From a virus, in the IMG/VR virus record IMGVR_UViG_3300020190_000032, positions 1 through 64,000 of that record: DNA of 64,000 bases; one strand, 5' to 3'. The position numbers and the translations under genes are program-made. The notes beneath the pieces were generated by a model. It was given only the letters and a program-made list of their open reading frames with translations. It was not told the origin of the DNA and did no database searches. Of this stretch, positions 2,577 to 61,032 are shown in pieces. How positions within the stretch are numbered: position 1 is the stretch's first letter; every line of letters starts with the position of its first letter.

Positions 2577-3656
2577 ATGACTGCTACTATTGCTCGTCAG
2601 CAACCAGTAAGTCAATGGGAGTCATTTTGTAACTGGGTTACGAGTACTTCAAATCGTCTTTATGTGGGATGGTTTGGGGCTTTAATGATTCCTTGCTTGT
2701 TGGCTGCGACCACTTGCTTTATCCTTGCGTTCGTTGCTGCCCCTCCGGTAGACATCGATGGCATTCGTGAGCCCGTTGCTGGTTCGTTGCTTTATGGCAA
2801 CAATATTATCAGTGGTGCTATTGTACCCAGTAGCAATGCTATTGGTTTACATTTTTATCCAATTTGGGAAGCCTCGACGTTAGAAGAGTGGCTTTATAAT
2901 GGTGGTCCATATCAATTGGTTGTATTTCATTTTCTGATTGGTGTTTTTGCGTATGCTGGTCGGGAATGGGAGCTTAGTTACCGATTGGGTATGCGTCCTT
3001 GGATTTTTGTTGCCTATCTCGCACCCGTTGCTGCTGCTGCTGCAGTGTTCCTTGTGTATCCATTTGGGCAGGGTTCCTTCTCTGATGGTATGCCTCTTGG
3101 CATTTCAGGAACATTTAATTTCATGCTTGTTTTCCAGGCGGAACATAATATCCTCATGCACCCCTTCCATATGCTTGGGGTGGCTGGTGTATTTGGGGGT
3201 TCTTTGTTCTCTGCTATGCATGGATCTTTGGTCACAAGTAGTCTTGTTCGGGAAACGAGTGAGGAAGTAAGTCAAAATTATGGTTATAAGTTTGGCCAAG
3301 AGGAAGAAACCTACAACATTGTTGCAGCACATGGCTACTTCGGACGACTTATTTTCCAGTACGCATCCTTTAACAATAGCCGTAGCCTTCATTTTTTTCT
3401 GGCTGCTTGGCCTGTTATTGGTATTTGGTTCACTAGTCTTGGCGTTGCTACGATGGCCTTTAATCTTAATGGGTTTAATTTTAATCAATCTATTATTGAT
3501 GATCAAGGCCGTGTTATCAACACTTGGGCTGATGTCCTCAACAGAGCAAACTTGGGATTTGAAGTCATGCATGAACGCAATGCACATAACTTCCCCCTCG
3601 ACCTCGCTGCCGTTGATGCAACGAATATTGCTCTTATAGCGCCGAGCGTTGGCTGA
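2577..3656 (+). CDS. psbA: Photosystem II D1 protein
   Basis: [52 protein letters not shown]; TyrZ and Mn ligands intact; Glu at position 130; no intron; start MTATIARQ at 2577. Confidence 0.99.
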
Positions 3657-3687
3657 TTGACTTTAGGATAACAGCAAGCTTATGATG

Positions 3688-3712
3688 GAGGGGTCCTCAC
3701 CCCTCTTTTTTT
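3688..3712 (+). terminator. Intrinsic terminator after psbA
   Basis: GAGGGG-TCCTCA-CCCCTC followed by T7. Confidence 0.75.
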
Positions 3713-4048
3713 ATGGCTTCAATTGAGAGCAGTGTACTTGATCTCGCTTGGGACACAGTACTAGACAGCATTGAATTGCCTTCAACGCAGATGCTTTTGC
3801 GTCAGCAAGGCAAAATTGAGTCAATCAAGGGCAACAGTGTGACAATTTCTGTTACTTCAGAATGGATTACCTTTTTAGAAAGCGGGAAAGAGATATTAGA
3901 ATCAGCGTTTAAAGAAGTATTTTCTTTTAAGGCTGAAATAACTGTTGTCAGGGCTGAGATGGAGCCTTTTAGGCGAGCAAAAGGCCGCATTTCTCGGATT
4001 TTATTAAATAAAAAGTCTAATTATTTACAAAGGTCTGGTCGGGATTGA
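3713..4048 (+). CDS. Stand-alone domain resembling the C-terminal domain of cyanobacterial DNA Pol III gamma/tau (DnaX)
   Basis: WDTVLDSIELPSTQMLLRQQ...VTISVTSEW resembles the picocyanobacterial DnaX segment recalled as WQQILxSLELPSTRMLLSQQ...AVVQVAGNW; TTGACT-18-TATGAT upstream (3657-3686). Confidence 0.65.
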   Translation: MASIESSVLDLAWDTVLDSIELPSTQMLLRQQGKIESIKGNSVTISVTSEWITFLESGKEILESAFKEVFSFKAEITVVRAEMEPFRRAKGRISRILLNKKSNYLQRSGRD

Positions 4049-7267: not shown

Positions 7268-7271
7268 GACA

Positions 7272-7376
7272 CGTTCATTCGCTGTTTTTGAATAGCGAAC
7301 GGAAGTAAGCCGACTTTTACTCGTATTCTTGATAAACGCTATTTATCAAGAATCCTGATAGCCGACTGAAGGAACG
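7272..7376 (+). promoter_or_regulatory. Glutamine riboswitch (glnA / Downstream-peptide class) with enlarged P3
   Basis: P1 CGTTC(7272-76)/GAACG(7372-76), P2 TTCGCTGTT/AATAGCGAA, junction CGGAAGTAAG and CTGAAG; lies directly before a YRG-motif DUF4278-type gene, the established context for this class. Confidence 0.8.
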
Positions 7377-7406
7377 CTCTTTAACCCTCGTTAAGGAGAT
7401 TCTGTT

Positions 7407-7595
7407 ATGTCGATTGCGACATATCGCGGTGTCAAGTATGACACTGACGTGCCCAAAAAAGAGTATGAGCAATGGTGGAATAAGATTCACCATGATGCCT
7501 CGCGGCATCTCATGTATCGCGGACGGGATTACCGTCCGTGTCAAACCAGCAAAGTCGTAGCATCTGCTACAATTTCGTTGCTGGAGGAACCATGA
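7407..7595 (+). CDS. DUF4278-type protein
   Basis: ATYRGVKYD and LMYRGRDY motifs; SD AAGGAG upstream. Confidence 0.8.
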   Translation: MSIATYRGVKYDTDVPKKEYEQWWNKIHHDASRHLMYRGRDYRPCQTSKVVASATISLLEEP

Positions 7596-7839: not shown

Positions 7840-7907
7840 GGGCACTTCCGGGAATCGAACCCAGCATTCTAGGCTGTCTGCCTAACGTGTTCCTACACCA
7901 AAGCGCC
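7840..7907 (-). tRNA. Non-canonical tRNA-like RNA (nominal anticodon GAC)
   Basis: Minus strand: GGCGCTT TG GTGT-AGGA-ACAC G TTAGG-CAGACAG-CCTAG AATG CTGGG-TTCGATT-CCCGG AAGTGCC C; all four stems pair, canonical T-loop, but 4-nt D-loop, A at position 33 and no encoded CCA. Confidence 0.65.
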
Positions 7908-10386: not shown

Positions 10387-10958
10387 AAGTTTTATTTCCT
10401 GGTGACTCAGAATTTACTTTTAATCGATATTGGGATCTTCCTTATCGCTATGTTCTGGATGCGTATGATTTCGCAAAGAAAGAACAGGTAAGGAATTGGC
10501 ACGTTCAAGAGGCACCTACAGCTCTTCTTACCTCTGTCATTGCTAACTCCAATAGAGATCCCAAGAAAAAAAGAGAACCATACAAGATGGATGATTTCTT
10601 CTTGTATCAACCTCGCGATGCAAAAAATATCCCAACTAGCGTGTATGGCGCTGCTGCGATGGAGCTTGCAGCTAAAAATCTTCTGCCTCCTTGGGCATTA
10701 TTTGTGTTTAAGGACCTTAAGGAAGCTTCTGATGGCCCACCACCACAGTTGCTTGCTTACATTGGTGAAAATGCGATGATACTTGCGCCGTTACACTACG
10801 AAGATAGAGTTAAAGGTATGGTGATAGCAACCGAGTCAGCAAGTCAAAAACGCATGACAATGACATCACCATGCGGCAGAAAAATATATGTTGAACTGCC
10901 ATTTGTTAATGGCAAGTTCTACGCACAAGAAGATGTCGAACTGCCTTTAATTAGCTAG
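10323..10958 (+). CDS. -1 frameshift extension of the tail assembly chaperone (gpGT-like)
   Basis: The -1 frame is open from 10323 (GKVNRGEWARVIEFDSIFWELK...) through the tracked ORF 10587..10958. Confidence 0.8.
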   Translation, partial: GKVNRGEWARVIEFDSIFWELKVLFPGDSEFTFNRYWDLPYRYVLDAYDFAKKEQVRNWHVQEAPTALLTSVIANSNRDPKKKREPYKMDDFFLYQPRDAKNIPTSVYGAAAMELAAKNLLPPWALFVFKDLKEASDGPPPQLLAYIGENAMILAPLHYEDRVKGMVIATESASQKRMTMTSPCGRKIYVELPFVNGKFYAQEDVELPLIS

Positions 10959-11337
10959 CCATCCACTGCTCATAGATGCAGCTTTGGACGATACCTGTTT
11001 GCAGCCAGTTCTTAATTCTCAGTTCTGAAGTAGCCGAATAAAACTCCTGCCTCCTGTACCATTGGGTCCATTCTTCACTACCCTTGGAATGATTGCATCT
11101 CTTGCAAGCCGGAACGCAATTACTGGTGCGATCTTCGCCTCCTTTACTCTTAGGTCTAACATGATCCAAAGTTAGGCTCTTTATGTCGATTGGCGGGCTG
11201 CCACAATAAGCACATTTGTTGTCCCATGCATCACGAATCGATTGCCTCCAAAGACGCTTTGCTTCTTTACCGCTCATGGCCTCAAGGTTGAAAAGGTACT
11301 CACAAGCCCTTTCTCGGGGCGTGTTCCAGAGGCTCAT
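10951..11337 (-). CDS. HNH endonuclease
   Basis: CAYCG, TLDHVRPKSKGG and NCVPACKRCNHSKG motifs. Confidence 0.92.
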   Translation of the reverse strand: MSLWNTPRERACEYLFNLEAMSGKEAKRLWRQSIRDAWDNKCAYCGSPPIDIKSLTLDHVRPKSKGGEDRTSNCVPACKRCNHSKGSEEWTQWYRRQEFYSATSELRIKNWLQTGIVQSCIYEQWMAS

Positions 11338-25535: not shown

Positions 25536-28500
25536 ATGGCTCTGCAGATAAGGAGGGTAACAGAAGCGCAGCGCCCTTTGATTACACCTGTTATAGGAGA
25601 GCCGGTATATGCATACGATTCCAATAAGCTCTATGTTGGGGATGGTACTACACCAGGTGGGATTAATGTCATTGAGACTATCCTTGTGCAGGATTTTCTC
25701 GATGCCGAACTGGAAAATGAAGATTTAATTCATGGTACGTTTATATATTATTCAGACGCCGAGAATAAATGGAAAATTGGCAAGCCAATAATTACGACAA
25801 GCGACCTTGAAGATGTAACCGAAGCAGAGGATCTTGAGCCTGGCTTCATGATCGTTTATAATTCTACGACTGAAAAATGGGTTATTCGAGAACAATTGCC
25901 TAAGGCTATCACAGATATTGATGGCATCTCTATTGAAGAAAACCTAGCGGTTGATAGTCTTTTAGAGTATAACGAAGAGACCCAGAACTTTGAATCAAAA
26001 CCAATTCCGCCAGTACCTTCAATTGGCGATTTACTTGGTGTTGAAATTACGGATCCCGAGAAGAGGGGTCACATGCTTTTCTTGGATGAAACCACGAATA
26101 ACTTTTTTAACGAATATGTTTTAAGTACAACCAAGGCAAATTATCACGCAAATTTGTCTAATTTAAATAATCTTGATACCATCAAATATAACGGGACTAG
26201 TGGTCTTTTTGAAAAGAGCACACCGTTTCTTAAAGATGTAAACCTGGTGAGCCTTGATGGCCTTGAGGAACCGCCTCCGGATGATGTCACAATTGAGGTA
26301 ATCATTAATGACGGAAAATTTATCTTTGATGAAGTCAGGGTAGCGCCTATCCTCAAACTTTTTAATGATCGTGATTATATCTTTGACCTCTCAGATCCAT
26401 CTTTACTTGGTAAAACATTTAGGTTCTCTACGACACTTGACGGCACACATAGTATTGACCCTCCTGGGGTAATACTGGAAAGTAACAGATTTGTAATTAC
26501 GGGAACTCCTGGTGTTGATGGCGAGTTCAGAATAAACTTTACAGGATTTGGAGAAAATCCCCCGCCAAATGACTTTTTCTATTTTTGTGTAGAGGAGCCG
26601 GAATTCGGAAATGCAGTTCAGGTGACGCCACCGCCAGCTCCCAAGCCTTTTGTTATGCAATGGGATGATACGCTGGAAGCTTTTAATGCAAAAAGATTTA
26701 GCTATACACTTGGAGAGTTTGGCAATGTTTTAATCACTTCTGATGAAGAAGGTAATATAGCCAACTATCAAATGTTGAGCTGGGATGCTGGATTACAGAA
26801 GTGGACAACTCCTCTTGACAGAGTTGCTGGTGTTGGCATTGGCAATTCACTGCCTAGGACCAGGACGCAATTCTCAAATGCAATGTGGAGAGGTGGCGTA
26901 CAGGGCTTAGGGACTTTTGACTTAAATTTAGAAGACGGAGAAGAACTTAAAAGTATCAAGATTAATCTTGATGAGCTTGAAATTGAAGGACAAGAGGAAG
27001 AATTTGATGCATTCTTCTTTGATAGCGAAGAAGAGCGCGAAGAGTTCATGGAAGCTCTTGAGGAGGCCGAGCGAGCATTAGGTCCTGGTGGGATCTTATC
27101 GAGAGAGGCAATTGATGCAATTGCCAAAGAAAAAGGCGCAAAAGTAGCGCGAATGAAAACAAATAAAAAGGAATACACTCGTACTGGTAAATCAGCTTTA
27201 AATAGACCTGGATTAGAAGTCGTCGGCGGCGGCGGCGGCGGTTTTGGAGGCGGATTTGGTGGTCTCTCTGGATTAGCTCTCGCCACGGTCGCGGCGGGAG
27301 GCGGCGGCGGTGGAGGCGGCGGCGGGGGCGGTGGTGGAGGTGCTGGATCTGATGAGCCTGGCCTTGACGCACTAACTACGCCAGTTCCAAGTCCGGAAGA
27401 AGAGGCTGAGGCATTTAAAGATGCTTACAAAAATCTTGGTAATAATTTAAAAAAAGTCTTTGGCGCTTTAATGGCAAGGCGTCGTTTATTAAAGAAGTTA
27501 CTGCCTGATTCACTTGCTGGTGGTGGCAGTGGCGGTGGGCTTGAACTTGAATTTGAAACCGTAGATCCAACTGGTGCATCAAGTCAAGACAAGCCTCCAA
27601 TTATGATGGGCTGGAGAGCTAGTACCGATGTCTATGGTTACTATTATTTCACCTATACCCAGCGTGCATCTGCATTAACTTATAACAGTAGAAATCATTG
27701 GCTGCTGGCTCAATCTTACATGCGACGTTGTGCTTGCACGATAAGCAGGCTGAATACATTTAAAGTTGTTTATTATTATGACGCTGATGATTCCCGCTTT
27801 ATGGCGGGTGAATGGCTGCGAATTGTTGAGTGGCAAAATCCTTCATCTCTTTATACAGGACAATTAGACGAATTCACTTCTACAACTATTCGTGACACGC
27901 TTGAGGAGTGGGATCCAGGCACAACTTACAGAAAAGGATCAAGGGTAATTTATGATGATAAGGTTTGGGAATGTCTAATTGAAACCTCAACCGCATCAGC
28001 ACCTGCTCCAGGTACTAAGCCGGCACCGTTATCTGTTAGCGGTGAAACCGTACAAATGTTTGTTGAGATACCGGCATTCAGTGTAAAATCCCAATTGTTC
28101 GAAGGTGTTTATCAATTAAGATGTACGCCAGGAAAAAATACTTTTGGTGGAAAAACACACCCTGTCTTCAGATTTGGCGAACCTGGTGACGATGCCGACT
28201 TTGTTTACGTTGGCGTTAATTTGCAAACGCAAAGCGCCTTAAGTGTATTGCCAGAGGGTGCAGGCAATATCCAAATTCATGTTAACAATAAAGCTGCACA
28301 CCGTCAGAATCTAGCCAATCAGAATGCAGACATTGGAGTCTTCATGTATGACATCAATGTTCATTCTGCGCTTCAGCATTTAATGGTTGCAGAATTTCAA
28401 ACATTTAATATTGAGAAACGTCTTGGAGAATGCAATTTAGCCGCTAGTGTTTTACAGTATTCTAATGAACGTTCTTTTAGTCTTAGTCTTGGGAATAGCT

Positions 28501-31500
28501 CTGGGGCAACACCTCCCACGACCGGACAGAATTCCATGCCGGGCGGAATTGTCACCTATAGAGGTATCTTCAGACCATATGGCAACCAAGGTTATTTTAT
28601 TGATGGCTTGAATGTTAATGCGGCAGATGGTGCTGCTTGTTTCAACCTGGATGGTGGCCTTCATAATGATGGGGCTGTTCAACCTGCTGGTTATACCTTC
28701 TTAGAAAACCTGCCTAGACCCATTTTGGATGCGAATGGAACTGGAGCATCGTTTATATCTAATTTTTATACATGGCGTAGAACTGATTACAGCGACTTTG
28801 TATTCTATTTGCCCAAAACACTTGGCGGAGGAAGAGATGCTTTACTGGGAGATAGAATTAAATATAGAAATGTTCCAAATACTTCAACCCTAATTGTTCC
28901 CAGCACTGGGTCTCCATACGCCCCTCCCGTCAATCAAACATTGGGTGAGAATGGCCCATTTAATATGAATCTGCAACCTGCAGTTGGCTCGAATCATGTT
29001 TATGGCGTGAGATGGTGTGTCAAGAGACGTGGTGCTCCTTTGACCCCGAAGACCCAAAAGGTTGGAGAGAAAGACCTAGGTACAATTACAGATGCGAATG
29101 GTAACGTTATAGCTACGAATGTAGAACAGTCAGCCGCAGAGCCGGGGCAGACTTGGACTAAAGACAAAACAGTTGATGTTTTGGAGGTTGTTGCAGGCAA
29201 TGACATTAAGACTGGGGAAGCAGGCACTGCTACTGCAAGTCTTGGGCGAATCGTGGCAAGTAAGTCTGCGGTTTGTATTGGTCTCTGCGACGAAAGTTCA
29301 ATCTTCCAATATGGATCTTATCGCTATGATCGATGGCAAAGTTTTAGATCAGAGTTTCCCAATAGACCTCACTGGTTACTTGTGCCTAGTGAAGGTAATT
29401 CTATTTATACTGCACCATTTCCACATTCAACGCTTGATTATGGTGCCTTAACAAACATAATAAGTCCTACGCAATTTGGTGGATCGGCCGGCGTAGTTGT
29501 TGCCAAAATACCTCCACAAGGAAATGGTAGTGGCTTTGTAAATGCCAGTTGGGTTGGTGGTGGTTTTATTGGGAACACCTCCCAGCCAGTTCCAGATAAT
29601 AGGGAAATTTTAATCTTAAGATTCCCTATGGGTACTGGAACTGATCAATCTACTCAGTGGACGTACCATTGGTACTATTTTGTTGATGGAACCACGGTTA
29701 GCAATACTTTTGTCGCTGGTTTAGTCCAAACTAGTGTGTTTTCTGAGCAGGCTGACAATAAATGGACATCTGTTGCATGGTCTCCTGGCCTTTCCCGTTA
29801 TGTGGCTGTAGCTAATTTGTATGGTAGCAATGATGTCATGTACAGCGCCAACGGTAAGCGCTGGACAGGGATCTTTGGTTCTTTTGTAAATGCTGGATCA
29901 CATGGTACAGTCTTATGGGCATCTAATATCAATAAGTTTGTATCTTTCTCCGGTTCAGACTCATTACATGGCAATATTTCTACTTCATCAAAGATCGCAA
30001 CAAGTAGTGATGGTATAACTTGGGTTCAGCAAAGCGTCGCGTTATCGCCAAATGCTCCAACGTTGTCATGGTATAAAGCAATAACATGCGCAGCATACTC
30101 ACCTCAACTTGGATTAATTGTAGCCCTCTCTCCGCAGAGTGGTCAGCCCGGCGCATCTGTATTGAGAAGTACTAATGGTGTTGACTGGATTCATGGATCT
30201 TCTCCAAATAGTGAGTCATTGAACTGGTCTAGCATTTGCTGGTCGCCCGAAAAGAATTTATTTGTTGCTGTTCATGATACGAACAGTCCGAATTTCAACA
30301 CTCCAGTGATGACGAGTCCAGATGGTATCAACTGGACTGCCAGAAGCGTTCCAAATAGTGAAGCAAATAGGTTCAAATCAGTTGTATGGGCTAAAGAACT
30401 TGGATTGTTTGTTGCCATTGGTATTTATGGAACAGCTAACAACGATGTAATGACAAGTCCAGATGGGATTACCTGGACCCTGAGATCTACAAATAAATTT
30501 TTGCCATGGAAATCAATCGCCTACTCTTCAAAGTTGCAGTTATTAGTCGCAATTACAGATCAGCAAAATGTTAGTGGGGCAATTATTACCAGTCCTGATG
30601 GCATTGTTTGGACTACCAGGTTAAATCCAGCCCCGGCAAATTCTTGGTCTTCTGTTATTTGGAATCCAGACAGAGAGGAATTTTTGGCTGTGGCTAGTTA
30701 TGGTGTTGGTGATAGGGTTATGACAAGTATTGATGGTATCAACTGGTCGACTCAGACAAGCGTTTCTTGGCCGCCGTCAGGCACAATGGGTCAATACATA
30801 CGATGGGATCACATTGTTAACGGTGTTGGCACCCAGATTACAACAGGGAATCCACCGGAAATACAAAAGTTTAACCCGATCAGCAAAAATCAAAAGAGTT
30901 CTCTGCCTCTTACTTATACTTTATCTCCAGGATACAATCCAACCTGGACATCTGCCGGCAGTGAGTTCTTTAAAGCAAATATGGTTTGGATCGCCGATCC
31001 AGCCCTTGATGATGGAGGGGAAAGATCGCTCAAGAGCTTAGAGGACCAAGAGATTACAATTTCCTATCGGATGAGGATACCTTCTGGTATCAGCAGCTTG
31101 ACTCAGAGCTTGAAGATCAAAGGTGCTGCTGACAATCAGATGACCGTTCAAGTCTTAAATCCAGTCACAAATGTAACTTATACTTTGTTGCAGTCTACAA
31201 GTTTTGCAAATACGACAGAAGTAACCATCCCACTTATACAGGTTGAACAATACTTTAGTCCTCAGCAGGTACATACTCAAGGTAAGTGGCTTGTTTTGAT
31301 GGTAAAACTTAAAAACTTGCCGAGGCCAGGCTTACCACTTACCGAGTTATACAATGTAAATTCATCAGCCTTTGCGCTATCAATTAATGCCACAATTTAT
31401 GGAACTGAATATACATTATTCAACGCAAAGGAATGGGCAAGCATACAACACGCTATCTATGGTCAAGGACTCCATAATCAAATGGGTACGCCAACAAATA

Positions 31501-31790
31501 GAATGATTGAAGCGGCATTGGGGGCTCCAAGCTATGGTCCGTATGCAGTGGTTAGAGATAATGGTAATAATACTAATATTACGGACTGGTTTGCAATGTG
31601 CGGTTTAGAAGGAAGACCAGTTGGAACTGTGATTGGTCTCTTTGTTGATAGATCTGGTTCCATGACACAAAGTACAATTCAAGCATCTTATACTTATTTT
31701 TATGAAAGGTGTCAGCAAGCCGGATTAATTATCAATGAGGTTCAGAATTCAAATGAAGACTGGATAACTCCATTTATTACTGAAATTTAG
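25536..31790 (+). CDS. Giant multidomain tail fibre / adhesin (2084 aa)
   Basis: Mtd-N-like start (LQIRR...GEPVY...LYVGDG), LxDV/W repeats, poly-Gly linkers, Asp-box propeller repeats (SPDGITWT), C-terminal FVDRSGSM. Confidence 0.8.
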   Translation: MALQIRRVTEAQRPLITPVIGEPVYAYDSNKLYVGDGTTPGGINVIETILVQDFLDAELENEDLIHGTFIYYSDAENKWKIGKPIITTSDLEDVTEAEDLEPGFMIVYNSTTEKWVIREQLPKAITDIDGISIEENLAVDSLLEYNEETQNFESKPIPPVPSIGDLLGVEITDPEKRGHMLFLDETTNNFFNEYVLSTTKANYHANLSNLNNLDTIKYNGTSGLFEKSTPFLKDVNLVSLDGLEEPPPDDVTIEVIINDGKFIFDEVRVAPILKLFNDRDYIFDLSDPSLLGKTFRFSTTLDGTHSIDPPGVILESNRFVITGTPGVDGEFRINFTGFGENPPPNDFFYFCVEEPEFGNAVQVTPPPAPKPFVMQWDDTLEAFNAKRFSYTLGEFGNVLITSDEEGNIANYQMLSWDAGLQKWTTPLDRVAGVGIGNSLPRTRTQFSNAMWRGGVQGLGTFDLNLEDGEELKSIKINLDELEIEGQEEEFDAFFFDSEEEREEFMEALEEAERALGPGGILSREAIDAIAKEKGAKVARMKTNKKEYTRTGKSALNRPGLEVVGGGGGGFGGGFGGLSGLALATVAAGGGGGGGGGGGGGGGAGSDEPGLDALTTPVPSPEEEAEAFKDAYKNLGNNLKKVFGALMARRRLLKKLLPDSLAGGGSGGGLELEFETVDPTGASSQDKPPIMMGWRASTDVYGYYYFTYTQRASALTYNSRNHWLLAQSYMRRCACTISRLNTFKVVYYYDADDSRFMAGEWLRIVEWQNPSSLYTGQLDEFTSTTIRDTLEEWDPGTTYRKGSRVIYDDKVWECLIETSTASAPAPGTKPAPLSVSGETVQMFVEIPAFSVKSQLFEGVYQLRCTPGKNTFGGKTHPVFRFGEPGDDADFVYVGVNLQTQSALSVLPEGAGNIQIHVNNKAAHRQNLANQNADIGVFMYDINVHSALQHLMVAEFQTFNIEKRLGECNLAASVLQYSNERSFSLSLGNSSGATPPTTGQNSMPGGIVTYRGIFRPYGNQGYFIDGLNVNAADGAACFNLDGGLHNDGAVQPAGYTFLENLPRPILDANGTGASFISNFYTWRRTDYSDFVFYLPKTLGGGRDALLGDRIKYRNVPNTSTLIVPSTGSPYAPPVNQTLGENGPFNMNLQPAVGSNHVYGVRWCVKRRGAPLTPKTQKVGEKDLGTITDANGNVIATNVEQSAAEPGQTWTKDKTVDVLEVVAGNDIKTGEAGTATASLGRIVASKSAVCIGLCDESSIFQYGSYRYDRWQSFRSEFPNRPHWLLVPSEGNSIYTAPFPHSTLDYGALTNIISPTQFGGSAGVVVAKIPPQGNGSGFVNASWVGGGFIGNTSQPVPDNREILILRFPMGTGTDQSTQWTYHWYYFVDGTTVSNTFVAGLVQTSVFSEQADNKWTSVAWSPGLSRYVAVANLYGSNDVMYSANGKRWTGIFGSFVNAGSHGTVLWASNINKFVSFSGSDSLHGNISTSSKIATSSDGITWVQQSVALSPNAPTLSWYKAITCAAYSPQLGLIVALSPQSGQPGASVLRSTNGVDWIHGSSPNSESLNWSSICWSPEKNLFVAVHDTNSPNFNTPVMTSPDGINWTARSVPNSEANRFKSVVWAKELGLFVAIGIYGTANNDVMTSPDGITWTLRSTNKFLPWKSIAYSSKLQLLVAITDQQNVSGAIITSPDGIVWTTRLNPAPANSWSSVIWNPDREEFLAVASYGVGDRVMTSIDGINWSTQTSVSWPPSGTMGQYIRWDHIVNGVGTQITTGNPPEIQKFNPISKNQKSSLPLTYTLSPGYNPTWTSAGSEFFKANMVWIADPALDDGGERSLKSLEDQEITISYRMRIPSGISSLTQSLKIKGAADNQMTVQVLNPVTNVTYTLLQSTSFANTTEVTIPLIQVEQYFSPQQVHTQGKWLVLMVKLKNLPRPGLPLTELYNVNSSAFALSINATIYGTEYTLFNAKEWASIQHAIYGQGLHNQMGTPTNRMIEAALGAPSYGPYAVVRDNGNNTNITDWFAMCGLEGRPVGTVIGLFVDRSGSMTQSTIQASYTYFYERCQQAGLIINEVQNSNEDWITPFITEI

Positions 31791-31822: not shown

Positions 31823-33832
31823 GTGGCACTTCAGTTTCGCAGGGGCACAGAAGAAGAACGGGAGCAAACTACTTTTGTCCCCCTGCTTGGGGAGCCGGTA
31901 TATACAACTGATACCAAACGTCTTTATGTCGGAGACGGTAGTACGGCTGGAGGGAATCCTGTTGGCTTTAATAATAAATTAAGTGATTTACAGGATGTAG
32001 AATTAATATCGGAAGTAAGCATTCCTATCTCCGCTATCGCCGCGACCGCTGGCGTTGTATCGATAGTTACTACCTTGCCGCACGGATTAGAGACTGGTCA
32101 ATTTCTGTATGTTTATTCAACGTCTCGCGCAGCAGTTAATGGCGTAAGACAGATAACGGTTACCGGAATCACCTCGTTAACATTTCAAGCTGCTACACCA
32201 GATTTTCCAAGTACAAATGACGCAGGCGCCGTAAAATACGAACCACAAGATAAAGCGATACTTGCTTGGGATCAAGCAACTGGAAAATGGGGTGAGCAGG
32301 TTTATGTTTATAAGCTTGAAGATTTGGGTGATGTTCGAATTACAAATCCCCAACAAAATCATATTATTCAATACACAGCAATTCCTGTTGGGAACATAAC
32401 AGACGAAGAAGATCAGATTGTTGAATCTGGTGTTGAAGAGCCGGATAATATTCCAGAAGGGTTGACATGGACTCAAACAGGAACAATCTCAAAATTCTTA
32501 AATAAGCAATTTGGTATTGGGATTGACAATTTAACTGATGTACTTATAAACCAATCTACTCTTTCGGATAACCAAATTCTTGCCTATGATTCTACGCTAA
32601 CAATATGGAAGAACCAAGATTATGTGAATGATATCAACGATCTTGCCGATGTAGATTTAACAGCGTTACCTGATCTAACACAAAATCTTGCAAGAATTTA
32701 CATTGGAGGATCTTTTGCTAAAAATGACAAAGTTAATGTTCAGATTACTGGAACCTTGTACACTTATACAGTTACTCAGCAAGATATAAACAATATTGAG
32801 GAAACCACCAGCACAGATGCGCAGTTTGATGCAGAGATGTTGCTGCTGATTGCTGGTCGGATTCGTGATCAAATAAATGCTGACGAAGATTGTCCTGTCG
32901 TTGCGACTAGGTCAAATGGTGTAATCACGTTAACTCCAAAAACAGCTCCAGTAAATCTAAATTTAACAGTAAGTATTGATGAAGCAGATCCAACGGATGC
33001 TTTTGTTCCCACAATAACCAAATTTGAACCAATAACTTCTCAAGTTTTATCATATGATGGAACAAAGTGGACTAACAAAGCTCTTGAAATAAATAATTTC
33101 AGTCTTAATGCTTTAAATGATGTTGATATTGATAATCCTGAGAATGGTCAGATCCTGCAATATAACTCTACTAGTTCTACATGGAAAAACGTAGCGAACT
33201 TTATCAGCTTAAGTCAATTTGCGGATGTAGAAATAATTGATCCGGAGAATGGTAATGCACTTATTTATAATGATACAAACGATAAGTTTGAAACAAGGTC
33301 TTTTATACTTGATGACCTAATAGATGTTAACGACCCAAGCTTTACAGAAATTATACCTGATGGCGCCATTCTGGCGTATGACGAAGCAGCGGAAGCCTGG
33401 ACACCTCAACAGTTTTCAAGTTTGTCTTCCAGGACTGAAGTAAGTTTTTATAGTGGCCCACTTGAAAACCTTGAAGTAACAACTGTAGATTTTGAAGCGT
33501 TTACTGGGTACGCTTTATTCAAGATGAAAGCTTCAGCCCCGTGTACCGTTACGTTCTATGTAAGTGACTATGAGCGCGAATTTGACCTTGATAGAGCTGA
33601 AGATGAACTGCCAAGAGTTGGGGCTGGAATTTTTGCTGAACTTACTCCAACTGACACATCTTGGAGGAGAGTAGCGCCTGTGATTTATGGTTTTAATGAT
33701 GATGTACCGATCACAAGGACTGCATATGCTAAGGTAAGAAATAGAAGTGGTTATTACCAGCAAAATATACAAATTTCATTGGTGATACTTCAAATTGAAG
33801 AAGATCCCGAGCAGGCTGGCGAGGGAGACTAG
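31823..33832 (+). CDS. Tail fibre-like protein
   Basis: MALQFRRGT...LGEPVYTTDTKRLYVGDG; repeated LxDLxDVxIxxPxxGxxLxY...W units. Confidence 0.8.
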   Translation: MALQFRRGTEEEREQTTFVPLLGEPVYTTDTKRLYVGDGSTAGGNPVGFNNKLSDLQDVELISEVSIPISAIAATAGVVSIVTTLPHGLETGQFLYVYSTSRAAVNGVRQITVTGITSLTFQAATPDFPSTNDAGAVKYEPQDKAILAWDQATGKWGEQVYVYKLEDLGDVRITNPQQNHIIQYTAIPVGNITDEEDQIVESGVEEPDNIPEGLTWTQTGTISKFLNKQFGIGIDNLTDVLINQSTLSDNQILAYDSTLTIWKNQDYVNDINDLADVDLTALPDLTQNLARIYIGGSFAKNDKVNVQITGTLYTYTVTQQDINNIEETTSTDAQFDAEMLLLIAGRIRDQINADEDCPVVATRSNGVITLTPKTAPVNLNLTVSIDEADPTDAFVPTITKFEPITSQVLSYDGTKWTNKALEINNFSLNALNDVDIDNPENGQILQYNSTSSTWKNVANFISLSQFADVEIIDPENGNALIYNDTNDKFETRSFILDDLIDVNDPSFTEIIPDGAILAYDEAAEAWTPQQFSSLSSRTEVSFYSGPLENLEVTTVDFEAFTGYALFKMKASAPCTVTFYVSDYEREFDLDRAEDELPRVGAGIFAELTPTDTSWRRVAPVIYGFNDDVPITRTAYAKVRNRSGYYQQNIQISLVILQIEEDPEQAGEGD

Positions 33833-34803: not shown

Positions 34804-35706
34804 ATGGGCCTTAGTTTATCTGAAGCCAAAAAGCATGCTTCTAATCCCCAGGAGCTTGCCGTTATTTCTGAACTCTCCGCTGGTCCCCTGCTGAGCGTTC
34901 TGCCTTTCCGTGAGATCCAGGGCAATGGCCTGTTCTGGAAGCGTGAAGAGTCCCTCGGTGACGTGGGTTTCCGTAACTATAATGCTAGCTACGGTGAAGC
35001 CTATGCTGAGGTGAGCCAGCAGTCTGAAAGCCTCCGTCTGTTCGGTGGCGACATCAAGATTGACCGTGCCATCCTGGACCTCGAGGGTTCTGAATCCCGC
35101 GCTTATCAGGTGCAGGCTAAGACCCGCGCAATGCGTCTTTCCTGGGAGTCGCTGTTCATCAACGGCGATTCGGATCAGTCCCCCAGCGAATTTGACGGCC
35201 TGGCTACTCGCCTGCCGGCTAGTGCCTATGCATCTAACAGCCAAGTGATCCGTAACGCAGCTTCCGCTGCTGCCCTGGACCTGAACGCTCTGGACGAAGC
35301 TATTGACGCTGTGGACGCACAAGGCGGCACCAAGTATCTGGTGATGTCCAAGTCTGCTCGTCGTCACCTGACCAAGCAGGCTCGCACTTCTTCCCAGATT
35401 GATATCGCTCGCAACGAGTTCGGCTACCAGCAAATGGTGTATGCCGGCCTGCCCGTGATTGAGCTGGATCGCGACCACCAGAATGCTCCCATCCTGGACG
35501 GCACCCCCGCTGATCAGTCGATCTATGTGGTGACCTTCGGCGGCGACCTGCTGACCGGTATCCAGAACGGTGGCATTCAGGTGCGTGACCTGGGTGAGTC
35601 CACTGCTTCTCCTCAGGTGGTGATCCGCGTTGAGTGGTACTGCGGTCTGGCCATGATCAATGGTCGCTCGGCTGCTCGCCTGTGCAACGTGAACGCTACT
35701 GCCTGA
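34804..35706 (+). CDS. Major capsid protein
   Basis: 300 aa; LLSVLPF, FINGDS...EFDGL and RVEWYCGLA motifs; strong C-ending codon bias; SD AAGGAG; flanked by terminators. Confidence 0.9.
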   Translation: MGLSLSEAKKHASNPQELAVISELSAGPLLSVLPFREIQGNGLFWKREESLGDVGFRNYNASYGEAYAEVSQQSESLRLFGGDIKIDRAILDLEGSESRAYQVQAKTRAMRLSWESLFINGDSDQSPSEFDGLATRLPASAYASNSQVIRNAASAAALDLNALDEAIDAVDAQGGTKYLVMSKSARRHLTKQARTSSQIDIARNEFGYQQMVYAGLPVIELDRDHQNAPILDGTPADQSIYVVTFGGDLLTGIQNGGIQVRDLGESTASPQVVIRVEWYCGLAMINGRSAARLCNVNATA

Positions 35707-47488: not shown

Positions 47489-47869
47489 TCATTCTTCCTG
47501 ATTTATTGCCGGGCCAGTAGCAATTACTTCGTGAAGGTATCGCTCAACATTTTCGACTTCCCAGTCATGTTCGTTGGCGAGAACATTGCCAAGAAGGTTT
47601 AAACTATCTTCATGATCTTCGTTCCATTTGCCTGACTTAAGTGCATCATTTCTGATTTCATTGATACCTAACAGAACATTAAGTTCAGAGATTTCTTCTT
47701 CTTGCTCGCTTATGACCTGCGCATGGCGCATTCTTTCTTTATCAATTAAAGTAAGCACTATCCAGCCAATTTTGCCATTTATAATAATTAAACCTTCTGC
47801 TATACCTTTGATTATTTTAAGTATGAGCAGGTTAGTATGGCTAACAAGGCTGAATAGTGCGTTTTTCAC
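47489..47869 (-). CDS. Hypothetical protein
   Basis: GTGA overlap with the helicase stop. Confidence 0.6.
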   Translation of the reverse strand: MKNALFSLVSHTNLLILKIIKGIAEGLIIINGKIGWIVLTLIDKERMRHAQVISEQEEEISELNVLLGINEIRNDALKSGKWNEDHEDSLNLLGNVLANEHDWEVENVERYLHEVIATGPAINQEE

Positions 47870-49617
47870 ATCAATAATCCCATAGATCGTTTTCGTTGTT
47901 CGATATCACTAATCGTAGTATCTGATTCGATCGAGGTAGTTTCGTAATCGATCCTGATAATGCTTTTTTCATGGAAGCCTTTTATACTTTCAAGGATGTC
48001 CTCACCTTGCTTCCATAGGGCTTGTCTGCCTCTTACTTTAGAGTGCCATACCTCAAGGTCTCTATTTATTTTATCGCCATCAGCTTTAACACGTCTGATT
48101 AGCCATGTTGCATGAGAGACATGCGCCAAAGCGTCAGTTCCGCGAATCTCATTAAGTTGGGGTTCGGCACTGGAAGTTGCATCCATTCCAACACGATTAA
48201 GCTGAGCAAGTACGAATAAATCAATATCCAATTCTTTGGCAGCCGTCATAAGTTTATAGGCTCTGTCTTCAAGCATTGCACTAGGATTACTGGCTGAACC
48301 GCCTTTGTGCCTGGCCAGTGCGTGGAAGTGATCAAGAACAACGGCCCTAAGTTCAGGGTTCTTAGCTTTCATGCTTCTCATCGTGTTTATACATGTGTCT
48401 ACACATGCGCCCCAAGGAGCCTCAATAAGCATTTTGCCACCAACCTCGTCGAGCCTCATTGAGACTTCGGCGACGATTCGTGCAATACGTTCTTGTGCTT
48501 GGGTCGCTCCCGGCAGTTCTAGTTCGCCAACCGTAACATGACCTATTTTGTCTGGGGTTGTTTTTCTCCAGTGGTAAGGAGAAATCAAACTTTTACTGAG
48601 ATTTGCAATCAGACGTGCTTCGATTGCCCGATTTTCAAGTTCAGCAGAAATGAATCCAACCGTCAGACCACCTTTTGCAAGGGATGCGGCCACATGAACG
48701 CCAAGAGCAGTCTTGCCAACGCCAGTCCTTGCTCCGACAACCATTAATCTGCCTGCGCGAGGTGTGTGAGGTCTTGGCGGGGCAACGCCACCTTCAATAT
48801 CAAGGTCAAAAGCGGGAACACCGGTAGAAACTGGTTGATCTTGGATCTTGGCATTCAGAATGTAATCAGCCCAATTGAGACGCCCCGTGCCGGGATCGCC
48901 AATGATTGATTGAACCAAGTCAACAACCTGTCCTTGATTACCAATAGAACCGCTCAGCATTCCAATACCTTCAAGCGTTCTTTCGTGCAAGAACTCCAAG
49001 GCCTTGGAAAGATTGGGGTCTGTTTTTAGGAATTGATTGGAAAGGTAAAGTGTTTCCTTGAATAAACTTGAAACACGTTTTTGCTTAAGAATGTCAAGGG
49101 CCGTATTCCATTCAGACGCAGCATCTCCATAAGCCTCTATCGTTTCCGAGTCTGCAAGTTCAGAAATAGTCTCACAAAAATCAGAAAAAGAAACATTATT
49201 ATTATTTTTTATGATAGATTCATAGCCAGTTATGATGCTATCTTTTGATATTGTTTTACCCGTTCTTTCGCCGATGAAAGTTAAGTCAATCTCTTTTGCA
49301 ATTGCCCTGAAGACCATTGACGACCATAGATTTTCAGGAAGTTCCTGCCCATGGCCAACACCAAAAGCGGTTCTGAGTTGAGACCATAGTTCCCTAGCTA
49401 CACCAGAAACACTGCTGAGAACGCGACTTAAAACAATTGCTTCTTGATTTAATGTGTCTTCACGTTCTGCAATAGTTGTTGGCTGAAGCTTTTCAACCAA
49501 TCTTGCAGATGCCATGACGGTCTCAATAGCAGCTTGATTTGTTCCGCAAATTTTGTCATCTTGTACTTCAAGCAGCCCGAGATCAACTGCTTTCTGGATG
49601 TAAAAGGGAAGTGTCAT
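47866..49617 (-). CDS. dnaB: DnaB-like (SF4) replicative helicase
   Basis: Walker A GARTGVGKT, ISAEL, VVLDHF, LAQLNR. Confidence 0.88.
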   Translation of the reverse strand: MTLPFYIQKAVDLGLLEVQDDKICGTNQAAIETVMASARLVEKLQPTTIAEREDTLNQEAIVLSRVLSSVSGVARELWSQLRTAFGVGHGQELPENLWSSMVFRAIAKEIDLTFIGERTGKTISKDSIITGYESIIKNNNNVSFSDFCETISELADSETIEAYGDAASEWNTALDILKQKRVSSLFKETLYLSNQFLKTDPNLSKALEFLHERTLEGIGMLSGSIGNQGQVVDLVQSIIGDPGTGRLNWADYILNAKIQDQPVSTGVPAFDLDIEGGVAPPRPHTPRAGRLMVVGARTGVGKTALGVHVAASLAKGGLTVGFISAELENRAIEARLIANLSKSLISPYHWRKTTPDKIGHVTVGELELPGATQAQERIARIVAEVSMRLDEVGGKMLIEAPWGACVDTCINTMRSMKAKNPELRAVVLDHFHALARHKGGSASNPSAMLEDRAYKLMTAAKELDIDLFVLAQLNRVGMDATSSAEPQLNEIRGTDALAHVSHATWLIRRVKADGDKINRDLEVWHSKVRGRQALWKQGEDILESIKGFHEKSIIRIDYETTSIESDTTISDIEQRKRSMGLLM

Positions 49618-51866: not shown

Positions 51867-51922
51867 GGGGCTTGACTGCCCCCTTTCTATTGATTATCCT
51901 CTACCTGAATCTTTTTCTTTCC

Positions 51923-52717
51923 ATGGCCGCCGACTGCGACACCGTCAAATTTTGGCTTGATGCTGCGGGTCGCTATCCAGTTCTAAAAACCGATCAAGTT
52001 TTATTGCTTGCTAAGCAGATCCAATCAAATTCTCCCGAGAGTCTTGCGTACAAAAAGGCATTACAAAAACTTGTACGACATAATCTTAAATTGATCCCAA
52101 CGGTTGCTCGTCGGGCAATGAGAAATAAATATGGCAAAAACTTTGGTGGCAGTTACACGGAAGATGTATTTCAGTGTGGCGTTGTTGGATTAATGCGAGC
52201 TGCTCAAAAATTCGATCCAACTCGTGGTTATGCTTTTAGCACTTACGCGGTTGGATGGATTTACCAAGCCATGCAACGTGATCTTTATAACAATATGTCC
52301 CCAATCCGTGTCCCTGAAAATACAATTAGAGAATATTACACAATATTTGTTAAGTCAAATGACAACCTTGCCCTTTCTGACGTAGACCCTAAAAAGATGA
52401 TTCGATACATGGATACGGCAAGTGCAATTCGCTGCAGATCATTGGATACCTATAGGCCCTCAGGGCACGCTGAAGATGGGCTTACAGAAGGCATTGAAGT
52501 CGCGTCCGATGACAGTCCTAAGGGTATTGAGCCTATTGACAAAATCATCGACATGTCTGACTGTTCAGACCTAGCCAAGCAAATGGTCTTGGATTACTAC
52601 CAGGATAATTTGACGATGCTTGAAATTGGTGAAAAAAATGGAGTTTCAAGGGGTCGGGTTTCCAAAATGATTCAAGCATGCCTCAAGGATCTCCGCGAGA
52701 AGTTATCGGCGGTATAA
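51923..52717 (+). CDS. RNA polymerase sigma-70 family factor (RpoD/group-2-like)
   Basis: Region 1.2 AGRYPVL, region 2 LVRHNLKLI and GLMRAAQKFDPTRGYAFSTYAVGWIYQAM, region 4 TMLEIGEKNGVSRGRV. Confidence 0.93.
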   Translation: MAADCDTVKFWLDAAGRYPVLKTDQVLLLAKQIQSNSPESLAYKKALQKLVRHNLKLIPTVARRAMRNKYGKNFGGSYTEDVFQCGVVGLMRAAQKFDPTRGYAFSTYAVGWIYQAMQRDLYNNMSPIRVPENTIREYYTIFVKSNDNLALSDVDPKKMIRYMDTASAIRCRSLDTYRPSGHAEDGLTEGIEVASDDSPKGIEPIDKIIDMSDCSDLAKQMVLDYYQDNLTMLEIGEKNGVSRGRVSKMIQACLKDLREKLSAV

Positions 52718-52747
52718 TTTAAGGTACTCGCCCTTTTGGGTAACGCA

Positions 52748-53104
52748 ATGGCATCTATCGCCCTCGCCGGCAAAGTGGTCGGCAAAAACGGTGAATCCCC
52801 TGTCTCTCTTAAAGAAGGCAAGGATTATACAATTGCTTCCTTTTCCATCAAGGACAGCACTTATTGCTACTTCAAGAATAAGGATGACAATCCCGGTCAG
52901 TTTTATCGCTGTGAGGTTCTCGGCAAGCAGGCAGCCCTGGCTGCAGAGCGCCTGAAGCGTGGAGACCGAGTTGCTGTGTCTGGTCAGCCTGTCTGGCGTG
53001 AATACAATGGCAACAAGTATCTTGATGTAAAGAATTGCCAGATCACCTTCCTGGAGGATCTTGCAAAAACTGGTACAAGCAGTTCTGGTGAAGACTTGTT
53101 CTGA
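52748..53104 (+). CDS. ssb: Single-stranded DNA-binding protein
   Basis: FYRCEVLGKQA...LKRGDRVAVSG; acidic C-terminal EDLF. Confidence 0.88.
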   Translation: MASIALAGKVVGKNGESPVSLKEGKDYTIASFSIKDSTYCYFKNKDDNPGQFYRCEVLGKQAALAAERLKRGDRVAVSGQPVWREYNGNKYLDVKNCQITFLEDLAKTGTSSSGEDLF

Positions 53105-59424: not shown

Positions 59425-61032
59425 GTGGATACACTGCAAATATTAAAAGGACTCGGTTTGGCGCTTTCAGAGGAAACGATAGAAAAGATTAAGAGCCTGA
59501 CGGTTTCTGCCGTTCTTGAAAAAGAAGGTGTATTTCTTAAAAGAGTAGGAAGAGAATTCGTTACACATTGTATTTGGCATAAAGATAAAAATCCATCTCT
59601 TACGATCTCAGACGAAAAAGGTTTCACTTTTTGTCACGTCTGCAGAGAGGGTGGTGATGTAATCAGTTTCATTAAGAAGAAGTATGGCTTAAATTTCAGG
59701 GAGGCTTGTGAAAGGATTGCAGCATCAAATAATATACAGGTTATCTACAAGGACGAAGATCCCGGTGTAGCAATTGAGAAAAAGAAAAAAATCGATGCCG
59801 CATTGCATGAAGCTCATCAAAAACACGAGTATTTTAGGTCGACATTAAAGCAGAGTGAAACTGCTATTAATTTTATTAAACAGCGTGGTATTTTACCTGA
59901 AACTTCTAGGCAGTTCAGTCTCGGTTATGACCCAAAAGAAAATCGACTTGTAATACCTATTAAAGATTACATGGGTAGAGTTGTTGGCTTTAGCAGAAGA
60001 GCAATCGGAGATGATAGGCCAAAATATAAAAACACTGAAAATAATCTCATTTTCAATAAGTCAGAAATTGTTTTCAACGAATATGATGCAATGGAGTCGA
60101 TGCGCTCCGAAGGGCAATGTATTTTCGTAGAAGGTCATATTGATGTCATTTCGATGTGGCAAGCTGGCATTAAAAATGTTGTTGCTTTGCAGGGTACTGC
60201 TTCTCCATCTGACAATGTTATACAGCGAATGATGCGCAGAACAAATAGTTTTGTTCTTTGCATGGATGCTGATGAGGGCGGTGAAAAAGCTATAGGAATA
60301 TTTTTAAACGCAGTTAAGTCTTTGACGTTATCTGGAAAGCTTGACGTAAAAATAGCTTCAATATCCGGCGGCAAGGACCCAGATGAAGCAATAAAAAATG
60401 GTTTTAATATTCAGGATGCTATTGACAATGCTATTCCATGGCTTGATTGGATTCTTGATAAATGGCTTTTAAATTTAGACTTTACTAATACATCAAAAAT
60501 TCAAGAAGTTGAAAGTAAAGTCAAAGAACTTATTTCAAATATAACCAGTTCGGCTTTACGGGCTCATTATTTTGACAAGGCGGCAATTCGGCTTGCTCAG
60601 AACAAACAAAATGTCGCGGCGGAAATACTTAAAAATCTTCAGTCAGATACCTCTTGCACACCGGGACAAAGGGTTTGGAGAAGGCCGGATAAATATTGGA
60701 CTCGCTCCATTGTGGAAAAAAGATTACTTCGTCTTTATATCCATCAGCCATCTTTGCGGTTTATGCTTGGATCATTAATGGATAACTTGATTAATCCGGA
60801 TATGATCTGGCTTTGGAGTAGGATAAAAGAGCTTGAAGGGCAGTCTTTGGTTGACTGCACTCCTTATAGCGTTATGGCTATACTTGCAGTTGCTGAGCCT
60901 AGGTACTTACAAAAGTTAAGGCCACTTGCAAGGCCAACTGTGAAAGTTGACGATTCTGATCAAGTCTTGATTCATATTGAAGACGTAATGACAAAGTCGA
61001 TTACTGAAGAAATCGAAGGCACACTATCCTGA
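59425..61032 (+). CDS. dnaG: DNA primase (start may be TTG at 59458)
   Basis: CHC2 zinc finger (CIWH...CHVC), PKYKNT, TOPRIM VEGHIDV and MDADEGG. Confidence 0.95.
   Translation: MDTLQILKGLGLALSEETIEKIKSLTVSAVLEKEGVFLKRVGREFVTHCIWHKDKNPSLTISDEKGFTFCHVCREGGDVISFIKKKYGLNFREACERIAASNNIQVIYKDEDPGVAIEKKKKIDAALHEAHQKHEYFRSTLKQSETAINFIKQRGILPETSRQFSLGYDPKENRLVIPIKDYMGRVVGFSRRAIGDDRPKYKNTENNLIFNKSEIVFNEYDAMESMRSEGQCIFVEGHIDVISMWQAGIKNVVALQGTASPSDNVIQRMMRRTNSFVLCMDADEGGEKAIGIFLNAVKSLTLSGKLDVKIASISGGKDPDEAIKNGFNIQDAIDNAIPWLDWILDKWLLNLDFTNTSKIQEVESKVKELISNITSSALRAHYFDKAAIRLAQNKQNVAAEILKNLQSDTSCTPGQRVWRRPDKYWTRSIVEKRLLRLYIHQPSLRFMLGSLMDNLINPDMIWLWSRIKELEGQSLVDCTPYSVMAILAVAEPRYLQKLRPLARPTVKVDDSDQVLIHIEDVMTKSITEEIEGTLS

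Follow-up and report, generated by a model that had tools for sequence, protein, structure and literature searches.

The window analysed was the first 64 kb (64,000 nucleotides) of an IMG/VR record of 84,315 bases, rated as 100% complete by CheckV. The 111-aa ORF named in the first-pass annotation was confirmed exactly, at 3713-4048 on the plus strand, with an ATG start, 111 codons and the peptide quoted there. It begins 56 bases after the psbA stop codon, and its product is referred to here as P0001. The features relevant to the analysis were as follows.

2577..3656 (+): psbA (photosystem II D1), the upstream neighbour adjoining the ORF
3657..3686 (+): sigma-70-like promoter candidate, TTGACT-18-TATGAT (consensus match alone, 10/12)
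3687..3712 (+): psbA intrinsic terminator, an 8-bp G+C-rich hairpin and T-run (terminator scan, RNA fold, sequence)
3713..4048 (+): P0001, stand-alone DnaX(tau)-type KH domain protein, 111 aa and stop (ORF list, PF23007, NF011510)
3713..3964 (+): P0001 residues 1-84, predicted type-II KH / DnaA-domain-I-like fold, net acidic (AF2, VIA-align)
3965..4045 (+): P0001 residues 85-111, predicted disordered basic tail (pLDDT < 50 for 85-110, composition)
47866..49617 (-): DnaB-like replicative helicase (PF03796 DnaB_C, E 6e-16; phrog_19)
52736..53104 (+): SSB (PF00436, 36.8-37 bits)
59425..61032 (+): DnaG-type primase (Zn_ribbon_DnaG, DNAG_N, Toprim)

The candidate promoter overlaps the psbA stop and lies just 5' of the terminator hairpin (3687-3706), its -10 box ending 1 base before the hairpin, and the T-run of the terminator ends directly at the ATG of the ORF. 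A transcript from this promoter would be expected to start inside the hairpin and to carry a short U-rich leader. With regard to the sigma70-like promoter claimed earlier, the site itself was present with 10 of 12 consensus matches, but promoter-like sites as a class showed no enrichment there (7 were found, shuffles giving 4.8 +/- 2.4), and for this reason it is treated as a candidate only. No Shine-Dalgarno sequence was found at a usable distance from the ATG at 3713. When sequences of the same composition as the ORF were shuffled, the frame was open by chance in 4/20000.

The ORF was covered by contigs of all four lake-water runs that were compared, with no difference within it, and a 4615-base contig spanning 3210-5400, from psbA through genes beyond the ORF, showed 0 differences (3 runs). 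Since these contigs bridge the junction between psbA and the ORF, the junction is real DNA. Among 23 runs, no RNA run containing the ORF stretch was found; the 20 that contained it were lake-water DNA. All 20 were labelled as lake-water metagenomes, with 19 flagged as possible sources, and they may represent one campaign.

The phage is a siphovirus, with a tape measure, tail tube, major capsid protein, terminase and portal. Other genes included, besides psbA, two of the sigma-70 family and those for class II ribonucleotide reductase, ThyX, dCTP deaminase, RusA and a PD-(D/E)XK exonuclease. The helicase, primase and SSB that the first-pass annotation had placed in the window were corroborated by the PF03796, DnaG-type and PF00436 matches; its 'initiator' was not identified, and the 335-aa ORF beside the helicase matches nothing. 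The claim that the window lacks a polymerase was upheld and extended to the rest of the genome, as six-frame searches revealed none of families A, B or C in the complete record, and scans of 77 ORFs with Pfam and of 55 ORFs with PHROGs also gave no polymerase. A very divergent polymerase may exist among the ORFs that belong to no family, two of which (335 and 509 aa) gave no useful PDB sequence match. The ORF at 3713-4048 sits 44 kb from the helicase gene, amid small ORFs without assigned function.

The phage D1 was 88% identical to a Cyanobium copy, the closest of the five genomes compared, versus 82-85% for Prochlorococcus copies and the copy of a large-genome cyanobacterium. Based on this and on the lake-water origin, the host is probably a freshwater picocyanobacterium. 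The best KH-domain scores of P0001 were obtained with Prochlorococcus-size genomes; a Prochlorococcus host was considered from this and not adopted, given the lake-water origin and the D1 nearest to Cyanobium, and the likeness is possibly compositional.

Family and fold of P0001

P0001 scored 30.0 bits with PF23007 (DnaA_N-like_STI, the DnaX/STICHEL KH domain), above the cut-off of 27 (E 5.8e-7), residues 5-77 aligning to positions 6-83 of 86. The NCBIfam model of cyanobacterial DnaX, NF011510 (640 positions), matched residues 6-83 with an E-value of 2e-13 through its positions 442-519 alone; the score was 50 bits, where the cut-off for the whole protein is 593. Clamp-loader domains I-III (AAA+) were found neither in P0001 nor elsewhere in the phage genome. 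In a BLASTP comparison with the C-terminal part of Cyanobium DnaX, P0001 was 34% identical over 82 aa (E 5e-15), a likeness far beyond chance, and its identity to any DnaX was 31-47%. These matches bear out the earlier proposal of a free-standing homologue of a domain from the tau-specific C-terminal extension. The DnaX motif on which that proposal drew was also largely correct: in Synechococcus UW140 and in a Cyanobium MAG, DnaX reads ...LWQQIL..L.LPSTRMLLSQQA.L.RLDG.R.VV.V.S.W... in this region.

An exhaustive HMMER search of 1.84 billion representatives returned 79 proteins at E <= 0.001, P0001 included. PF23007 was present in 72 of the other 78, of which 10 also had clamp-loader domains, and several of the 78 carried the name DnaX in their source records. 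Beyond the P0001 cluster, identity to the best relative among these representatives was 33-41%. Protein P0002, from an insect record, was considered as a relative and taken as spurious, with 11 short stretches and no Pfam family. The PHROGs search with P0001 gave nothing below E 0.05, PDB sequence searches with P0001 or with the profile of alignment A2 gave chance matches only, and a word-index search found only P0001 itself among proteins of near length (1/9 candidates) and none among 303 longer ones.

For the cellular distribution, 185,579 species genomes were scanned with the pattern ST[KRQ]MLL[SRT]QQ, which favours picocyanobacteria. At least 572 loci were found, the best 80 comprising 77 from Prochlorococcus, 2 from Cyanobium and 1 from Synechococcus. 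Every one of these 80 lay in dnaX. In 73 cases the ORF was 400 aa or longer, 6 loci were truncated at the end of a contig, and a stop preceded the remaining one. In an even sample of Cyanobacteriota, P0001 matched 86 of 401 genomes and PF23007 matched 91 of 201. Among 14 named control genomes, PF23007 was found in Synechococcus elongatus only.

Twelve columns were at least 90% conserved in an 80-sequence alignment (A2, which omits rows P0002, P0003, P0045, P0056 and P0064). P0001 was identical at 10 of these, the exceptions being L35, which is I, and R58, which is G; the second variant of the protein, P0080, has R at position 58. The conserved motif kept in P0001 consists of W13, P23-S24-T25, M27-L28-L29, Q31-Q32, W51 and E63.

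No Pfam match to P0001 was obtained at E up to 10 for either DnaA_N (PF11638) or the E. coli tau domain V family. When aligned by hhalign with five cyanobacterial DnaA N-termini, P0001 gave an E-value of 0.012 with 73 collinear columns and 16% identity. In cyanobacterial genomes PF11638 finds DnaA only (5/5) and misses the DnaX domain. Because the likeness to the DnaA profile is marginal and PF11638 finds DnaA alone, P0001 is, judged by its sequence, a DnaX-type member of the fold class and not a DnaA fragment. The outcome that the first-pass annotation named as refuting, best hits to no more than a generic DnaA N-terminal KH-like fold, was thus not the one obtained, since in sequence P0001 matches DnaX in particular. 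In the DnaA profile alignment, the invariant M27-L28 and W51 stood opposite a T-W pair and the W after 'APN.F', which we take to be the partner-contact patch of DnaA domain I.

The AF2 model of P0001, based on an 80-row alignment, showed the order helix, helix, strand, strand, helix, helix, strand. Block pLDDT values were 72 for residues 1-10, 86-90 for residues 11-80 and below 50 for residues 85-110. Residues 1-84 contain 7 K/R and 14 D/E, versus 9 K/R and 1 D/E in the tail (85-111). Neither DnaX nor the second phage lineage described below has anything corresponding to this basic tail.

In comparisons of the model with solved structures using VIA-align, the highest score was for domain I of B. 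subtilis DnaA (4tps_D; Z 11.9, rmsd 2.1 A over 79 residues, Foldseek E 1e-4), followed by domain I of H. pylori DnaA (2wp0_D; Z 8.7), V. cholerae DciA bound to DnaB (8a3v_D; Z 8.3) and the N-terminal domain of E. coli DnaA (2e0g; Z 6.8). The match to E. coli tau domain V was weak (5fku_E; Z 5.6, rmsd 5.3 A, Foldseek E 0.02; 2aya, E 0.033). Marsin et al. (PMC8216460) assign DnaA domain I, DnaX domain V and the N-terminal domain of DciA to one type-II KH fold. The suggestion in the first-pass annotation that the domain represents the alpha- and DnaB-binding part of the E. coli type was not supported in that form, the fold being DnaA-domain-I-like and the score for domain V only Z 5.6. In the ESM Atlas structure search, the nearest entries were cyanobacterial DnaX (TM 0.73). 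Since DnaX of Bacillota and Chloroflexota were also listed, KH-type modules in this position of tau are apparently widespread.

The same structural neighbours, DnaA domain I and DnaB-bound DciA, would also suit a helicase adaptor, in which P0001 binds a DnaB-type or other phage helicase and aids its loading or regulation with no direct link to Pol III alpha. DnaA domain I is indeed called the DnaB-binding domain in PMC8216460. However, by sequence P0001 groups with DnaX and not with DnaA or DciA, as reflected in the marginal DnaA profile E-value and the lack of any DnaA_N match, and in this phage 44 kb separate the ORF from the helicase. Such an adaptor is regarded as unlikely.

In Prochlorococcus DnaX, the KH domain occupies about residues 424-500 of 565-587. 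It is the sole folded part of the tau-specific C-terminal extension in cellular DnaX, and the 3' part of the gene after it encodes a low-complexity linker and then an A-x-FFNG end motif, whose residues A, F, F, N and G were invariant in 40/40 picocyanobacterial DnaX C-terminal regions (alignment A4). Its earlier designation as the C-terminal domain of DnaX was therefore amended, as the linker and the invariant motif come after it. Both are absent from P0001. In E. coli, binding of alpha requires the extreme C-terminus of tau. In the AF2 model of a Prochlorococcus DnaX C-terminal region, pLDDT was about 95 for the KH domain and about 43 for the linker, and the end motif formed a helix (137-146) with a block mean of 80. 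This model prompts the idea of a contact between the KH domain and the end motif of DnaX, in which case the tail of host tau might also be captured by a free KH domain.

Free-standing copies in other genomes

The ORF at 3713-4048 was a singleton in one phage species, represented by two protein variants (G58R, S71C) on 20 contigs. No orthologue of P0001 was found in any other phage. The KH domain was present in 0/80 neighbourhoods of a conserved adjacent cyanophage gene, tblastn with P0001 and a lineage-2 protein gave no match in 50,697 GenBank phage records, and IMG/VR scans with P0001, P0006 and P0040 as single queries returned nothing.

An alignment-based scan of IMG/VR identified 10 loci (GC 32-38%) with free-standing ORFs of 76-83 aa, termed here lineage 2. 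Their proteins are 37% identical to P0001 and end right after the KH domain. A small siphovirus represents the lineage, in a record of 35,193 bases that is 93% complete. It encodes a primase-helicase of the Prim-Pol/VapE type, a PD-(D/E)XK exonuclease and a helicase of the SNF2 type, and no polymerase of families A, B or C was found in it. The KH gene lies within the replication module. Its stop overlaps the start of the helicase gene (ATGA or TGATG) in 10/10 loci, and the primase-helicase gene is divergently upstream in 8/10, the two other loci being too short to tell. Pairwise dN/dS values were 0.11-0.58, mostly 0.13-0.27, by which measure the lineage-2 KH gene is under purifying selection.

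A quick maximum-likelihood tree was calculated from 117 rows and 70 columns. Rows without PF23007 (P0002 and P0056), identical sequences and domain matches spanning <= 55 profile positions were excluded, as were most of the proteins in the P0003 and P0006 clusters. The lineage-2 proteins formed one clade (support 87) within a 56-row Prochlorococcus DnaX clade (support 99). P0001 was placed apart from lineage 2 on a long branch, its origin not being resolved by this quick tree. Lineage 2 is a second, independent phage capture, in an unrelated siphovirus. An assignment of lineage 2 to the MPP-C podoviruses was considered and rejected, with a tape measure and lambda-like tail genes present and no match to an isolate phage. 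In the Atlas, an 81-aa PF23007 cluster of 54 members was also seen, and half of its few taxon-labelled members were viral.

The lineage-2 gene order bears in two ways on the helicase adaptor. Its gene is translationally coupled to a helicase gene at all 10 loci and faces the primase-helicase, as an adaptor gene might; however, the coupled helicase is of the SNF2 type and not of the DnaB type.

Further copies were found outside recognised phages. A free-standing marine family (P0006/P0040) comprised five short loci, around which no clear phage genes were found, and 2/5 had internal stops. In two proteins, P0059 and P0064, a ThsB-like TIR domain is joined to one or two copies of the KH domain. 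In addition, a free-standing copy of 105-113 aa adjoins a gene pair encoding a STAND NTPase and a TPR protein in 5/5 genomes having it, and as these neighbourhoods are from close relatives with proteins 86-100% identical, they count as about one observation.

The TIR fusions and the STAND-TPR neighbourhoods could indicate an anti-defence decoy, with free P0001 blocking immune sensors that bear the KH domain or masking the phage protein that they sense. The TIR and STAND proteins are, however, only putative defence proteins, and in PADLOC-DB 0 families matched P0001 or the lineage-2 protein at E up to 0.001. A decoy would also leave the position of the lineage-2 gene in a replication module unexplained, and this role is considered improbable.

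The third nucleotide positions of the codons in the ORF matched those of the phage, with a GC3 of 0.357 versus 0.358 for the phage helicase gene. From this agreement, together with the low identity to DnaX (31-47%), the capture of the dnaX domain by the phage is estimated to be old. The same data bear on whether the ORF is a functionless passenger, that is, a leftover of host DNA acquired near psbA which is still open yet unused. Its occurrence in a single phage species, its position directly behind a terminator with no ribosome-binding site, its absence from RNA runs and the internal stops in the related marine family are each compatible with this. Yet the frame has stayed open at this degree of divergence from DnaX, an outcome that was rare in the shuffles, its start and end coincide with the domain borders, 10 of the 12 nearly invariant residues are kept, the codon GC3 is that of the phage, and purifying selection acts on the parallel capture in the other lineage. 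We assign only a slight probability to a passenger.

Proposed role and comparison with known systems

The best explanation, which is favoured tentatively and at slightly less than even confidence, is that P0001 acts in trans as a mimic of the tau domain at the site of a host-tau partner, diverting or uncoupling the host replisome. The long-ago capture from a cyanobacterial dnaX would have involved only the KH-type domain of the tau-specific extension, with the basic tail as a new element. Because P0001 keeps the conserved surface motif and has lost the clamp-loader body, the linker and A-x-FFNG, it would be expected to bind the partner of the tau domain without tethering that partner to the host clamp loader, and hence to be a trans-acting mimic. 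The most likely site of use would be the replication fork, in a phage with its own helicase, primase and SSB and no polymerase. There, P0001 might hand host Pol III to the phage replisome, via its tail or a second surface. Alternatively, it might detach the partner from host forks and thereby uncouple them. We infer that P0001 is made and bound to a replisome protein, as well as the direction of its effect. The partner could be Pol III alpha, by analogy with E. coli tau domain V, although this identification is doubtful.

In favour of the mimic, two unrelated polymerase-less siphovirus lineages carry a gene for a tau-extension domain, and the lineage-2 copy is part of a replication operon and under purifying selection. 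Against it, the P0001 gene is beside psbA, 44 kb from the helicase, with a terminator directly upstream and no Shine-Dalgarno sequence, and has no orthologues in other phages. In the protein, the A-x-FFNG motif is missing, the allele in the window has G at the nearly invariant R58, and the likeness to E. coli tau domain V is weak.

A broader proposal, more speculative and rather unlikely, is that polymerase-less cyanophages repeatedly steal the tau KH domain as a free coupling factor and that TIR and STAND proteins carry it as bait in an arms race. If true, host Pol III would be plugged into a replisome composed of phage helicase, primase and SSB, cyanobacterial TIR and STAND immune proteins would use the KH domain as bait for phage replication proteins, and the arms race would be centred on the tau C-terminal domain.

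To our knowledge, the takeover of the host replicase by polymerase-less phages has been detailed for very few systems, none of them a cyanophage. No description of a phage-encoded DnaX or tau domain was found in the full-text literature searched, largely main texts outside subscription journals; the first-pass annotation knew of no such mechanism in cyanophages, and the search likewise found none for phages generally. The KH domain and the theme of host-replicase hijack are already known, and what is new is that the tau domain itself is carried by a phage. Such a phage gene provides a concrete handle on replicase takeover by polymerase-less phages, and it singles out one domain of cyanobacterial DnaX. 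The domain moves as a module from one setting to another, among them the replisome, phages and proteins with a likely immune role. Should P0001 bind alpha or the helicase, the cyanobacterial replisome would have in it a small natural inhibitor or adaptor.

Among known proteins, the KH domain of cyanobacterial DnaX (PF23007; NF011510 about 442-519) has the sequence family, the fold and the W...LPST.MLL.QQ...W motif in common with P0001. Unlike DnaX, P0001 stands alone, without the AAA+ domains I-III, the linker and A-x-FFNG, and with a new basic tail.

A free C-tau fragment of E. coli reportedly binds both DnaB and alpha and partly replaces tau in trans. E. coli tau couples DnaB and Pol III alpha via domains IV and V (PMC11470591). 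Domain V (2AYA; 5FKU/5FKV chain E) holds the equivalent position, as the folded domain of the tau-only extension, and is likewise placed in the type-II KH class in PMC8216460. Its structural likeness to P0001 is weak (Z 5.6; Foldseek E 0.02-0.03), with no sequence match. DnaA domain I (4TPS, 2WP0, 2E0G) and the DciA N-terminal domain (8A3V, 7YKM) provided the best solved folds (Z 11.9 to 6.8), and in sequence the likeness of DnaA domain I to P0001 is marginal.

Two phage systems offer parallels. The MPP-C cyanopodoviruses, as presented in PMC9860041, have a helicase/primase and SSB but no polymerase, and recruitment of host Pol I or Pol III has been proposed by the authors; the terms 'DnaX', 'tau' and 'clamp' do not occur in that paper. 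This phage is alike in having a helicase/primase and SSB and no polymerase gene. In Bacillus phage SPP1, the helicase G40P binds host tau and so brings in the host polymerase (work cited in PMC5737612; discussion in PMC9860041). SPP1 is, like this phage, a siphovirus with its own helicase, and it uses host Pol III through a contact via tau. The difference is that SPP1 fits its helicase to host tau, whereas this phage carries a piece of tau itself.

Viral matches to the KH domain and other proteins containing it

The AlphaFold2 model of P0001, the 111-aa stand-alone KH domain protein of the lake phage, was matched at E under 0.001 by a sole viral predicted structure in BFVD, G9BWD0 (148 aa), with an E-value of 6.7e-5 and an rmsd of 1.8 Å over 72 columns. 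A tau-domain gene encoding 76-83 aa was also carried by a marine 35-kb siphovirus lineage that is without a polymerase (contigs L004-L013; whole record L014/L015), where it overlaps the start of a SNF2 helicase gene:

L014:9101-9340, KH gene of the marine siphovirus lineage

A third free-standing family, of 81-130 aa (proteins P0006 and P0040), was found on the marine metagenome contigs L200, L201, L209, L211 and L231. The tree placed this family inside a Prochlorococcus DnaX subclade, and two of the five loci exhibited an internal stop. The adjoining genes (TPR, GIY-YIG-like and DUF4116) were not clearly phage genes.

Further architectures holding the domain were drawn from the loci L238, L239, L240 and L241 and the proteins P0044 and P0003. 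Among them were an additional DnaX paralogue, 508-518 aa long, which ends in the KH domain without the linker or end motif, and a separate ORF of 268-309 aa corresponding to the C-terminal part of tau alone, with the KH domain, the linker and an ADMFDGEVV end. The remainder comprised a MUG113 domain with a KH domain (388 aa), a KH domain with an HNH nuclease (245 aa) and three KH domain copies in tandem (338 aa).

Other features of the lake phage genome

The following features were identified in the window, or in the genome where stated:

7270-7380 (+), glutamine riboswitch RF01739, 40.5 bits against a cut-off of 35
7407-7595 (+), 62-aa ORF downstream of the riboswitch, matching DUF4278 below the threshold (23.3 bits vs 25.3)
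7840-7907 (-), tRNA-Val (GAC) gene
10951-11337 (-), free-standing HNH endonuclease gene within the tail module
25536-31790, 31823-33832 and genome 73837-75813 (L002:12837-14810), Mtd_N-start proteins
34804-35706, major capsid gene
51872-52717 and 58753-59379, two sigma-70-family genes

Three large phage proteins start with the Mtd_N domain (major tropism determinant N-terminal); despite these, no reverse transcriptase (RVT_1) was found in the phage genome. The major capsid gene had a GC content of 0.574 and a GC3 of 0.635, the window mean of 0.438 being far lower.

KH domains on or beside putative immune proteins

Free-standing PF23007 proteins of 105-113 aa were present in five of the 401 sampled cyanobacterial genomes, all of them large (L110-L114), with a mutual identity of 86-100%. 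An example locus is:

L110:4936-5253, free-standing PF23007 protein

In all five loci, the PF23007 gene was divergent from a gene for a STAND (NB-ARC/NACHT-like) NTPase, after which came a TPR gene. On the opposite flank of the PF23007 gene, a Uma2 nuclease gene was seen in both of the loci scanned there (L110 and L114).

The exhaustive HMMER search matched two proteins in which a ThsB-like TIR domain was fused to the DnaX-type KH domain, present as one copy in P0059 (277 aa) and as two copies in P0064 (321 aa). These two proteins may be immune sensors that use the replisome domain as bait.
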